A DNA stretch of 64,000 bases, from assembly GCF_050920415.1 (NCBI RefSeq), contig NZ_CP169309.1; one strand, written 5' to 3'. The DNA is from Escherichia coli. Its GTDB lineage: Bacteria; Pseudomonadota; Gammaproteobacteria; Enterobacterales; Enterobacteriaceae. This document shows, piece by piece, positions 48,340 through 56,323 of the stretch; within the stretch, counting starts at the first letter, position 1; every line of letters starts with the position of its first letter. The translations under genes and the position numbers were made by a program. Below the pieces are notes generated by a model. The model saw nothing but the letters and a program-made list of their open reading frames with translations, was not told the DNA's origin and made no database searches.

Positions 48340-48795
48340 TTAGTACTGATGAGCGGTCGCGTTGTTGCCAAAACCAACCTGAGTAACGTTTACGCTAGAG
48401 TTAGATGCAGTTTGATCAACTGCAGCACCGTTACCACCACCAAACTGTTTAACAGTCATTTCAGAGTTTTTACCGTTCCACTGATCAAGAGTGGCACTGT
48501 TACCGAAGCCACGTTGGGTCAGATCGATTGAGCTGTCATCAGAGCCCTGACCAACATCTGCACCGTTACCGCCACCGTGCTGGGTAATCGTCAAGTCAGA
48601 GTTACGAGCATCAGTTTGCAGAGCAAGTGCAGAGTTACCACCACCGTACTGGTAAATATTCAGCTCTGAATTTGGGCCGCTATTATTACCGCCACCGCCA
48701 TGGTGACCACCACCGCCATACTGAGGAATAGAACCTGCCAGAGCGCTACCAGAGAATACGATTGCTGCAATTGCTGCTACTTTTAAAAGTTTCAT
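48340..48795 (-). CDS. csgA: Major curlin subunit CsgA
   Basis: 151-aa ORF with five imperfect amyloid repeats (S-x5-Q-x-G-x-G-N-x-A). Confidence 0.97.
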   Translation of the reverse strand: MKLLKVAAIAAIVFSGSALAGSIPQYGGGGHHGGGGNNSGPNSELNIYQYGGGNSALALQTDARNSDLTITQHGGGNGADVGQGSDDSSIDLTQRGFGNSATLDQWNGKNSEMTVKQFGGGNGAAVDQTASNSSVNVTQVGFGNNATAHQY

Positions 48796-48835: not shown

Positions 48836-49291
48836 TTAACGTTGTGTCACGCGAATAGCCATTTGCGACTGTCTCTGCACTACAATTGCCGTTTTTTGAG
48901 TACCATACTGTGTAATATTTGCTTTATTACCAGAACCTTTCTGGATAATCATCGCAGTATTACCATAAGCACCTTGCGAAATACTGGCATCGTTGGCATT
49001 GCCCGCCTGATCAATATATGCAAGGTTATAATCTCCTGTCTGGTCAATCTTTGCCCGGTTGCTACTACCTTCTTGCGCAACAACCGCCAAAAGTTTTGAG
49101 CCTCCCTGCCGTAACTGCGCACTATTATTAGTCCCAGCTTGACCAATTATGGCTGCCTGATTAAATGAAGACTTACTCAATTCATTTACCGCGAAGTTAT
49201 ATTCTGAATTAGCTAAATCATAACCTGCTGCGGCTGCAATCCCAGGCGCACCCAGTATTGTTAACATCATAAATAACAATTTGTTTTTCAT
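48836..49291 (-). CDS. csgB: Minor curlin nucleator subunit CsgB
   Basis: ORF 48836..49318; start chosen at MKNKLLFMMLTILGAPGIAAA (151 aa). Confidence 0.95.
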   Translation of the reverse strand: MKNKLLFMMLTILGAPGIAAAAGYDLANSEYNFAVNELSKSSFNQAAIIGQAGTNNSAQLRQGGSKLLAVVAQEGSSNRAKIDQTGDYNLAYIDQAGNANDASISQGAYGNTAMIIQKGSGNKANITQYGTQKTAIVVQRQSQMAIRVTQR

Positions 49292-50045
49292 GTTGTCACC
49301 CTGGACCTGGTCGTACATTTAAGAAATTAAATCATTTCAACTTGGTTGTTAACGCAACCTGTATTTTGTTAACGCTGCGTTACGATGGAAAGTATGTCTG
49401 CGGAAATATTTTTAATAACTCACCCGCGCGTTGTATTTTTCTTTTTTTGTTCATACCAAAGTATTAAAACCCACGTAAATACGCTGTTATCTACGCAAAA
49501 AAATATTTTGTTTTCTTTTAAATTTCGGTTTTCCGCAATCAAAAATCACCAGACAGTCATTCTTCTTGCCCGTCGCTGATTGCTGCGATATGTCTTGCGC
49601 ACAAGCCGTGACAAACCTCGTCTTTTTGCAGTAAAAAATTGTCCACGGAGGTGTGGAGAAAAAACAAGAACGTTTTACATGACGAAAGGACTACACCGAA
49701 ATATTTTTTATATGCATTATTAGCAAGTTAGCACCATTTGTATGATTTTTTAAAATTGTGCAAGAAAAACCAAATGTACAACTTTTCTATCATTTCTAAA
49801 CTTAATAAAACCTTAAGATTAACATTTTAATATAACGAGTTACATTTAGTTACATGTTTAACACTTGATTTAAGATTTGTAATGGCTAGATTGAAATCAG
49901 ATGTAATCCATTAGTTTTATATTTTACCCATTTAGGGCTGATTTATTACTACACACAGCAGTGCAACATCTGTCAGTACTTCTGGTGCTTCTATTTTAGA
50001 GGCAGCTGTCAGGTGTGCGATCAATAAAAAAAGCGGGGTTTCATC
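49292..50045. promoter_or_regulatory. csgBAC / csgDEFG divergent intergenic control region including the csgD promoter and 5' UTR
   Basis: 754-bp AT-rich interval between divergent csgB and csgD; established binding region for OmpR, CpxR, IHF, H-NS, RstA and MlrA, and the csgD leader is an sRNA target. Confidence 0.75.
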
Positions 50046-50696
<651 letters not shown>

Positions 50697-55588: not shown

Positions 55589-55676
55589 GGTGAGGTGTCC
55601 GAGTGGCTGAAGGAGCACGCCTGGAAAGTGTGTATACGGCAACGTATCGGGGGTTCGAATCCCCCCCTCACCGCCA
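55589..55676 (+). tRNA. serX: tRNA-Ser (anticodon GGA)
   Basis: 88-nt cloverleaf: acceptor stem GGTGAGG/CCTCACC, long variable arm, T-loop GGTTCGAATCC, anticodon loop CTGGAAA, 3' GCCA. Confidence 0.93.
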
Positions 55677-56323
55677 TCTTTAAAGAAGAGCTCGTACGAA
55701 AGTACGGGCTTTTTTTTCGTATATTGCACACGCCGGGGGGATGAGAAGCCCCGACAGGGGTTCGACAACTGGCGACAGCCAGTTGGACAGACCGTGAACG
55801 CAGTGAGCGGGCTGCCCGCAGGGCGAGCGAAGCGAGTCAATCCCCCCCTCACCGCCATCTTTAAAGAAGAGCTCGTACGAAAGTACGGGCTTTTTTTTCG
55901 TATATTGCACACGCCGGGGGGATGAGAAGCCCCGACAGGGGTTCGACAACTGGCGACAGCCAGTTGGACAGACCGTGAACGCAGTGAGCGGGCTGCCCGC
56001 AGGGCGAGCGAAGCGAGTCAATCCCCCCCTCACCGCCATCTTTAAAGAAGAGCTCGTACGAAAGTACGGGCTTTTTTTTCGTATATTGCACACACCGGGG
56101 GGATGAGAAGCCCCGACAGGGGTTCGACAACTGGCGACAGCCAGTTGGACAGACCGTGAACGCAGTGAGCGGGCTGCCCGCAGGGCGAGCGAAGCGAGTC
56201 AATCCCCCCCTCACCGCCATCTTTAAAGAAGAGCTCGTACGAAGGTACGGGTTTTTTTTTTCGTATATTGCACACACCGGGGGATGAAAAGCCCCGACCG
56301 GGGTTCGACAACTGGCGACAAAC
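55658..56323 (+). repeat. Tandem array, about 3.6 copies of a 181-bp unit, starting inside the serX 3' end
   Basis: Units start at 55658, 55839, 56020 and 56201, each beginning with aatccccccctcaccgcca (the last 19 nt of serX) followed by a terminator hairpin and T-run; copies 1-2 identical, copy 3 has one substitution, the last partial copy is more diverged. Confidence 0.9.

Follow-up and report, generated by a model that had tools for sequence, protein, structure and literature searches.

The literature already covers the 754-bp region between the divergent curli genes csgB and csgD, with its regulators, the small RNAs that act on it and its curvature (PMC12713406, PMC12388358, PMC3535384, PMC6061853, PMC4152358). 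The regulators listed there include OmpR, CpxR, MlrA, IHF, H-NS, RstA, CRP, Cra, BasR, RcdA, RcsB and others (PMC12713406, PMC12388358, PMC3535384). On the csgD side, the OmpR activating site D1 is reported at about -51 (PMC13304067), the MlrA consensus is AAAATTGTACA(12N)TGTACAATTTT (PMC9662190), and the zone of the block ACATTTTAATA is reported to bind CpxR, RstA and OmpR (PMC12388358). Seven small RNAs, McaS, RprA, GcvB, RydC, RybB and OmrA/B, act as repressors on the csgD leader (PMC6061853, PMC4152358). Repression occurs partly via RNase E cleavage within an A/U-rich stretch, and a zone from -128 to -112 followed by an AUUUA hairpin has been described in this leader (PMC6061853). Two stem-loops were published for the same RNA, SL1 at -83 to -28, which was supported by structure probing, and SL2 at -10 to +16 (PMC4152358). 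A 92-nt transcript from the csgD start site, ES056, lacks a predicted terminator (PMC4676190).

We analysed the corresponding interval in a 64,000-nucleotide stretch of Escherichia coli DNA (contig NZ_CP169309.1 of assembly GCF_050920415.1), called hereafter the window. With a probability of about 95%, the interval is the known, intact curli control region, consisting of two promoter modules and a spacer that joins them. The region itself is already known, and an earlier note, made from the sequence, described the context of this textbook regulatory region correctly and brought nothing novel. We infer the assignment of proteins to sites from the literature, and the spacer role of the centre from comparative data. 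The features are collected in Table 1.

Table 1. Features of the csgB-csgD interval and its borders. Positions are those of the window.
Feature	Position	Strand	Details
csgB CDS (curli nucleator)	48836-49291	-	left boundary; ORF translation, RefSeq annotation (allele identical in WL297)
csgB-csgD divergent control region	49292-50045		754 bp, 34.5% GC
last 16 nt of csgB leader, including ribosome-binding site, CAGGTCCAGGGTGACA	49294-49309	-	conservation 0.95, 75 species
candidate csgB -10 hexamer CATACT, sigma-S-like	49391-49396	-	per-base conservation pattern only
CsgD box CGGGTGAGTTA (presumed)	49416-49426	-	upstream of csgB; block conservation 0.92
central spacer (putative)	49471-49731		261 bp, 37.9% GC; sequence not conserved, length and AT-richness kept
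largest predicted bend in the window (T5 ... A6TT)	49617-49641		peak 49628, ~-270 from csgD start site; wedge model
conserved block TTGTATGATTT	49738-49748	+	-160 to -150, just upstream of MlrA box; conservation 0.89
MlrA palindrome, AAAATTGTGCA + 12-nt spacer + TGTACAACTTT	49752-49785	+	-146 to -113
conserved block ACATTTTAATA	49822-49832	+	-76 to -66; conservation 0.88
OmpR activating site D1, GTTACATTTAGTTACATGTT	49839-49858	+	centre ~-50; identical to K-12
csgD -10 TAGATT (49887-49892) with C at -13, sigma-S signature	49886-49892	+	start site 49898/49899
csgD 5' untranslated leader, 148 nt	49898-50045	+	100% identical to K-12
Rfam RF02752 ES056	49899-49990	+	first 92 nt of csgD leader; 119.7 bits (gathering score 43)
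A/U-rich Hfq and RNase E cleavage zone, then small hairpin CCC-AUUUA-GGG	49913-49937	+	sequence
central leader stem-loop	49966-50016	+	outer stem 49966-49972/50010-50016; upper stem 49987-49993/49997-50003
csgD ribosome-binding site GGGG and start-codon hairpin	50035-50059	+	predicted fold
csgD CDS	50046-50696	+	right boundary; ORF translation and RefSeq annotation

Boundaries of the interval and its relation to K-12

The annotation used throughout is that of the RefSeq genes of strain WL297, carried over by gapped alignment. It gives the gene order fabF ... rne ... flg ... pyrC ... mdoGH ... csgCBA, csgDEFG ... dgcT ... pgaABC, with the interval lying between csgCBA and csgDEFG. Open reading frames and annotation agree that it is flanked on its two sides by the divergent genes csgB and csgD. 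On the minus strand, the CsgB frame (MKNKLL...) begins at 49291; the mechanical list of open reading frames prolongs csgB to 49318. The 754-bp gap that the earlier note had placed at 49292-50045 follows exactly from the starts of csgB and csgD. It was also rightly called the longest non-coding interval of the window, since it tops all annotation-free gaps, ahead of those of 647 bp (55677-56323), 590 bp (dgcT-pgaA) and 572 bp (rluC-rne). Of 5426 complete E. coli genomes, 5371 carry the interval.

The counterpart in K-12 MG1655 (NC_000913.3, 1103197-1103950) is likewise 754 bp long, colinear and 98.8% identical, with the same flanking genes. Nine substitutions and no insertion or deletion separate the two. 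The promoter core, the OmpR D1 box, the arms of the MlrA palindrome, the CsgD box and the whole 148-nt leader are shared unchanged, and no difference lies between -79 and the start codon of csgD. The neighbouring genes are also close to K-12, with two nucleotides and one amino acid differing in csgB, and five nucleotides and two amino acids in csgD. Synonymous differences amount to 1 out of 67 sites in csgB and 0 out of 83 in csgD.

The 1.2% divergence of the interval is therefore not in itself evidence of constraint, because the synonymous sites that adjoin it are equally similar. For this reason low divergence from K-12 was rejected as proof of purifying selection, and the argument for constraint is carried by the cross-genus comparison. 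The block formed by csgB, the interval and csgD may share a recent ancestry with K-12.

Conserved promoter modules and the csgD leader

A search for CsgD in species-representative genomes gave 80 loci. A measurable gap was found in 75 species, and 76 gaps were aligned. The 80 loci come from Escherichia, Citrobacter, Salmonella, Enterobacter, Lelliottia, Leclercia, Trabulsiella, Kosakonia, Atlantibacter, Franconibacter, Buttiauxella and other genera. The distance between csgB and csgD is 742-802 bp in 73 of the 75 species. In Kosakonia pseudosacchari and K. quasisacchari (L083 and L084) it is 586-589 bp, with a centre of 139 bp and neither of the anchor motifs, and one Escherichia locus (L068, Escherichia sp. 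MOD1-EC7003) has a 20-bp deletion within the csgB-proximal module.

Two conserved modules, at 49292-49470 and 49732-50045, flank a poorly conserved centre at 49471-49731 in the alignment of the 76 gaps. The modules are 0.6-0.98 identical across genera, with the four-fold sites of csgD at 0.35-0.68. At a conservation of at least 0.8, eight blocks are found, which make up 18% of the gap and coincide with mapped regulatory elements (75 species). Starting at csgB, the first four comprise the final 16 nt of its leader, the CsgD box, TTGTATGATTT and the MlrA right arm. Further toward csgD follow ACATTTTAATA, the zone from -47 to -23, the -10 with the start site, and the leader from +55 to +89.

Salmonella enterica and other Enterobacteriaceae (agfD-agfB) have the same architecture, with the CsgD box, the MlrA right arm, the -10 and the leader block. 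In contrast, the centre of Salmonella and other genera is unalignable with that of E. coli (identity 0.27-0.43), and the first part of the leader differs (PMC12388358). The Salmonella gap is given in papers as 582 or 754 bp (PMC7409106, PMC13304067). Between the two start codons, S. enterica subsp. diarizonae has 760 bp, which does not support a length of about 521 bp for the Salmonella gap.

In the csgB module, the stretch CAGGTCCAGGGTGACA upstream of the csgB start is conserved beyond the requirements of a ribosome-binding site. The four-fold sites of csgB are themselves unusually conserved among Escherichia species (0.84-0.91, versus 0.62-0.71 for all csg genes). The candidate -10 hexamer CATACT is followed by seven variable nucleotides and then by the conserved block GTAACGCAGCGTTAACAA. 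The consensus of the CsgD box, reportedly established by Brombacher and colleagues in 2003, is said to be CGGGKGAGNKA. It has a single match in the 64 kb, versus 0.19 expected, and we take this match, at 49416-49426 on the minus strand, to be the CsgD box. In the csgB module (~49292-49470), CsgD would act at this box and thereby switch on the fibre genes csgBAC.

On the csgD side, the block that holds the -10 and the start site (49886-49898) is 0.96 conserved. A start at 49898/49899 fits both the leader length of 148 nt (PMC4152358) and the 5' end of ES056. Conservation is 0.89 over the promoter-proximal half of D1 together with the -35 zone (49851-49875), and 0.99 in the right arm of the MlrA palindrome, both arms of which are as in K-12, with one base differing in the spacer. 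The MlrA palindrome and the OmpR box sit at the positions given in the literature. The csgD module (~49732-50045) would comprise a sigma-S-type promoter, an OmpR site near -50 and the MlrA palindrome further upstream, and the sites for CpxR, RstA, H-NS, IHF and RcsB would overlap those of OmpR and MlrA. That the region is a hub for OmpR, CpxR, RstA, IHF, H-NS and MlrA, as the earlier note had it, agrees with reported binding (PMC12713406, PMC12388358, PMC3535384). The same papers are the source for binding by RcsB and for dependence on sigma-S. Scans of the interval with the IHF (WATCAANNNNTTR) and CRP (TGTGA-N6-TCACA) consensus sequences gave counts at or below chance and no convincing site for either protein. 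A sigma-70 promoter scan gave two matches, versus 2.9 expected, and neither of them is the known promoter.

The same note had described the csgD leader as a target of several small RNAs, which holds for the seven reported (PMC6061853, PMC4152358). Since the leader is identical to that of K-12, the target sites are intact; the genes of the small RNAs lie outside the window. The central stem-loop matches the published SL1, and compensatory changes were found in 12 of its 24 predicted pairs (RNAalifold, 20 genera). The start-codon hairpin matches SL2, and the fold of the leader has a z-score of -2.2. On this structured leader, Hfq-dependent small RNAs would block translation or trigger cleavage by RNase E.

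The ES056 model is matched over all of its 92 positions. The simpler reading is that ES056 is a 5' fragment of the csgD mRNA leader and not a separate gene, because its 5' end is the csgD start site, it has no predicted terminator (PMC4676190) and it lies where the leader is cleaved by RNase E (PMC6061853).

Composition and predicted curvature of the interval and length of its centre

The earlier note called the interval strongly AT-rich, and this is borne out by a GC content of 34.5%, versus 49.8% on average over the window (sd 4.9%, tiles of 754 bp). Equal AT-richness is reached elsewhere in the window only at 56.7-58.3 kb. A-tracts, defined as AnTm of four or more, number 43 in the interval, versus a mean of 15.6 per tile. 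Only five of 1265 tiles hold at least 43, and the top tile (46 A-tracts, start 49201) overlaps the interval. However, shuffles of the interval that preserve dinucleotides already contain 36.1 +/- 3.2 A-tracts, and 10 out of 500 reach 43, so that most of the A-tract richness is due to base composition.

The note had further proposed that the A-tracts make the interval curved. Curvature was predicted with the Bolshoy-Trifonov wedge model. The proposal holds in part, for a single local peak at 49628, in the middle of the interval, where the predicted bend of 37.6 degrees is the maximum of the 64 kb and is reached by 8 of 200 shuffles. The mean predicted curvature of the interval is not above that of the shuffles, 155 of 200 of which reach it, and does not support a general curvature of the whole gap. 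By this model, predicted curvature is one local feature and not a property of the entire interval. A universally conserved position of the bend was rejected as well, the peak near -418 from the csgD ATG being kept in Escherichia and some Citrobacter only.

Between the two modules, the centre evolves freely in sequence. Its identity among Escherichia species is 0.64-0.73, versus 0.62-0.71 at four-fold sites, and its divergence from other genera is essentially saturated. Its length is 257-272 bp in 73 species, and its GC content is maintained at ~37%, versus 48.5% in the flanking coding DNA. Compared with four Escherichia species, the centre has 79-94 substitutions and no gap event (four of five pairs), whereas short intergenic spacers of the same loci have 3-11 gap events per 71-93 substitutions. 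The Poisson probability of observing no indel in the centre is ~4e-4. Over a larger distance, the CsgD box and the MlrA right arm are 353-366 bp apart in at least 15 genera, although the sequence between them is saturated with changes.

Divergence at the synonymous rate, together with almost no indels and a constant length and AT-richness, suggests that selection acts on spacing and not on sequence. We tentatively propose, from these comparisons, that the centre may serve as a ruler, in which a length of ~260 bp (~360 bp from CsgD box to MlrA box) and AT-richness would be selected and the sequence left free. This inference draws on few independent lineages. The 261-bp centre would most likely be a spacer or scaffold for nucleoid proteins, and the divergent promoters could be coupled through a nucleoid-protein structure (an H-NS bridge, an IHF bend) for which the contour length must be constant. 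The data do not support a strict helical phasing of the modules: distances of 356, 362 and 364 bp between CsgD box and MlrA box are all common, and with no quantisation in steps of 10.5 bp such phasing is unlikely. A full-text literature search found no description of a ruler role of the centre, which is weak evidence of novelty.

An alternative is that the constant length is unselected, and reflects a low local rate of indel mutation, or chance, in an otherwise neutral sequence. We regard it as plausible but on the whole doubtful. The clean pairwise counts come from only about six Escherichia lineages that share ancestry, one of the comparisons (L006) is not significant on its own (p = 0.11), and the length of the centre drifts by up to 15 bp among genera and falls to 139 bp in the two Kosakonia species. 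Against it stand the 3-11 indels accumulated by neighbouring spacers of the same loci where the centre has none in four of five pairs, the low Poisson probability, and the steady distance between CsgD box and MlrA right arm under saturated divergence. The centre also contains many A/T homopolymer runs, a context expected to be indel-prone. Selection on spacing and composition is the most economical, though tentative, reading of the centre.

A second TGTACAAC motif, similar to the MlrA right arm, is present inside the centre of several Enterobacter, Lelliottia and Citrobacter species (L028, L032, L036, L039, L049, L053 and L059, at gap positions ~222-290).

Alleles of the strain and its genomic background

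The nine bases by which the strain differs from K-12 are T at 49448, T at 49524, G at 49527, A at 49537, T at 49546, C at 49724, G at 49731, G at 49764 and A at 49818. The alignment with K-12 that the earlier note had asked for thus yields no change in any block conserved across species: none of the nine falls inside the eight blocks defined on 75 Enterobacteriaceae species, and column conservation at these sites is 0.08-0.56, versus a mean of 0.59 for the gap. A reading that put the G at 49764 (-134) into the palindrome's left arm was rejected, as the position belongs to the 12-nt spacer between the two MlrA arms, a part without conservation, where the column contains T in 27, A in 19, C in 14 and G in 9 cases among the genera.

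These substitutions, especially the G at -134 in the MlrA footprint and the C and G at -174 and -167, might retune csgD and alter the curli or rdar phenotype. Some of the alleles are rare, the exact 59-mer with 49764 G being found in 17 of 5322 genomes and the cluster of four substitutions at 49524-49546 in only 18, and the pair 49724C/49731G is exact in 200. Curli expression is reportedly altered by single-base changes in the region (PMC13304067, PMC11278976), and a 2026 preprint ties polymorphisms of the csgB-csgD gap to rdar variation among clinical isolates. Nevertheless such an effect is unlikely here, given that all nine sites are weakly conserved and outside the blocks, that 49764 lies in a freely varying spacer, that the entire leader, like the promoter core and the OmpR site, is as in K-12, and that 49448T (exact in 3171 genomes) and 49818A (2000 genomes) are common. 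Judged from the DNA, ordinary csgD regulation is expected in this strain, with a small chance of a quantitative effect of the alleles.

The earlier note saw no sign of an insertion or an extra gene, and we concur. With no indel relative to K-12, inserted DNA was rejected, and a permissive Rfam scan of the interval (E up to 1) found no family besides ES056. A hidden gene was rejected as well, the open reading frames having stops or lacking start codons in sister species and showing no codon-position bias. An unannotated small protein or independent small RNA is hence highly improbable. In its favour, eight open reading frames of 30-64 codons overlap the gap, five of six other Escherichia species keep the 64-codon frame (49385-49579) open, and ES056 is entered in Rfam as an sRNA gene. 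Against it, the 64-codon frame is interrupted by stops in E. albertii, Citrobacter, Salmonella and Lelliottia and has no start codon elsewhere; its substitutions, at 9:14:14 over the codon positions, show no third-position excess, and its conserved N-terminus is csgB promoter DNA. In addition, the centre diverges at the synonymous rate, and ES056, the one Rfam match, can be read as a fragment of the leader.

The strain is a member of a rare E. coli lineage. Among 5426 complete genomes, the best match over 14 kb is 99.3% identical, and 15 records reach 99%. In WL297 the 754-bp interval is identical, and the window is 98.9% identical over its first ~56 kb and 99.7% over the last 8 kb. Divergence of the 64 kb from K-12 is 2.9% overall and forms a mosaic. 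It reaches 7.7% of bases and 23% of four-fold sites in csgA (48340-48795, three amino acids) and 13-18% of four-fold sites in csgF and csgG, versus ~1% in csgB, the interval and csgD (48836-50696). This pattern suggests recombination or a species-wide block of low diversity.

Other peculiarities of the window lie toward its right end. The dgcT gene (ycdT, a diguanylate cyclase gene next to the pga operon; 56324-57780, minus strand) is split into open reading frames of 178 and 307 amino acids. The break, near 57247-57262, corresponds to one bp fewer than in WL297 at a T7CCA7 run, and the split reflects either a pseudogene or a sequencing error in the homopolymer. Divergence from K-12 has its maximum in the window, 7-10%, over the 5' half of dgcT and the gap between dgcT and pgaA (56000-58300), and this segment contains the most AT-rich 754 bp of the window (32.1% GC, start 57304). 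The 647-bp gap at 55677-56323 consists of tandem repeats that follow tRNA-Ser: a 181-bp unit is repeated 3.7 times at 55658-56320 with 98% matches, its first copy starting inside the 3' end of the tRNA gene (55589-55676). The repeat is also present in K-12, and WL297 has a copy number different from that of the window. The gap is devoid of IS3D, the ymdE pseudogene and ycdU, which occupy the dgcT-serX interval of K-12 (1094245-1097564).

The cross-genus footprint map separates the ~18% of the interval that is truly constrained in sequence from the remainder, and flags two conserved blocks, one at 49738-49748 and one formed by the final 16 nt of the csgB leader. The free sequence of the centre, set against its fixed length and composition, bears on how the two promoters communicate and on the reported bimodal expression of curli. 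For the organism itself, a strain of a rare lineage retains all conserved elements of the curli switch, and since every one of them is kept, its curli regulation is expected to resemble that of K-12-like strains.
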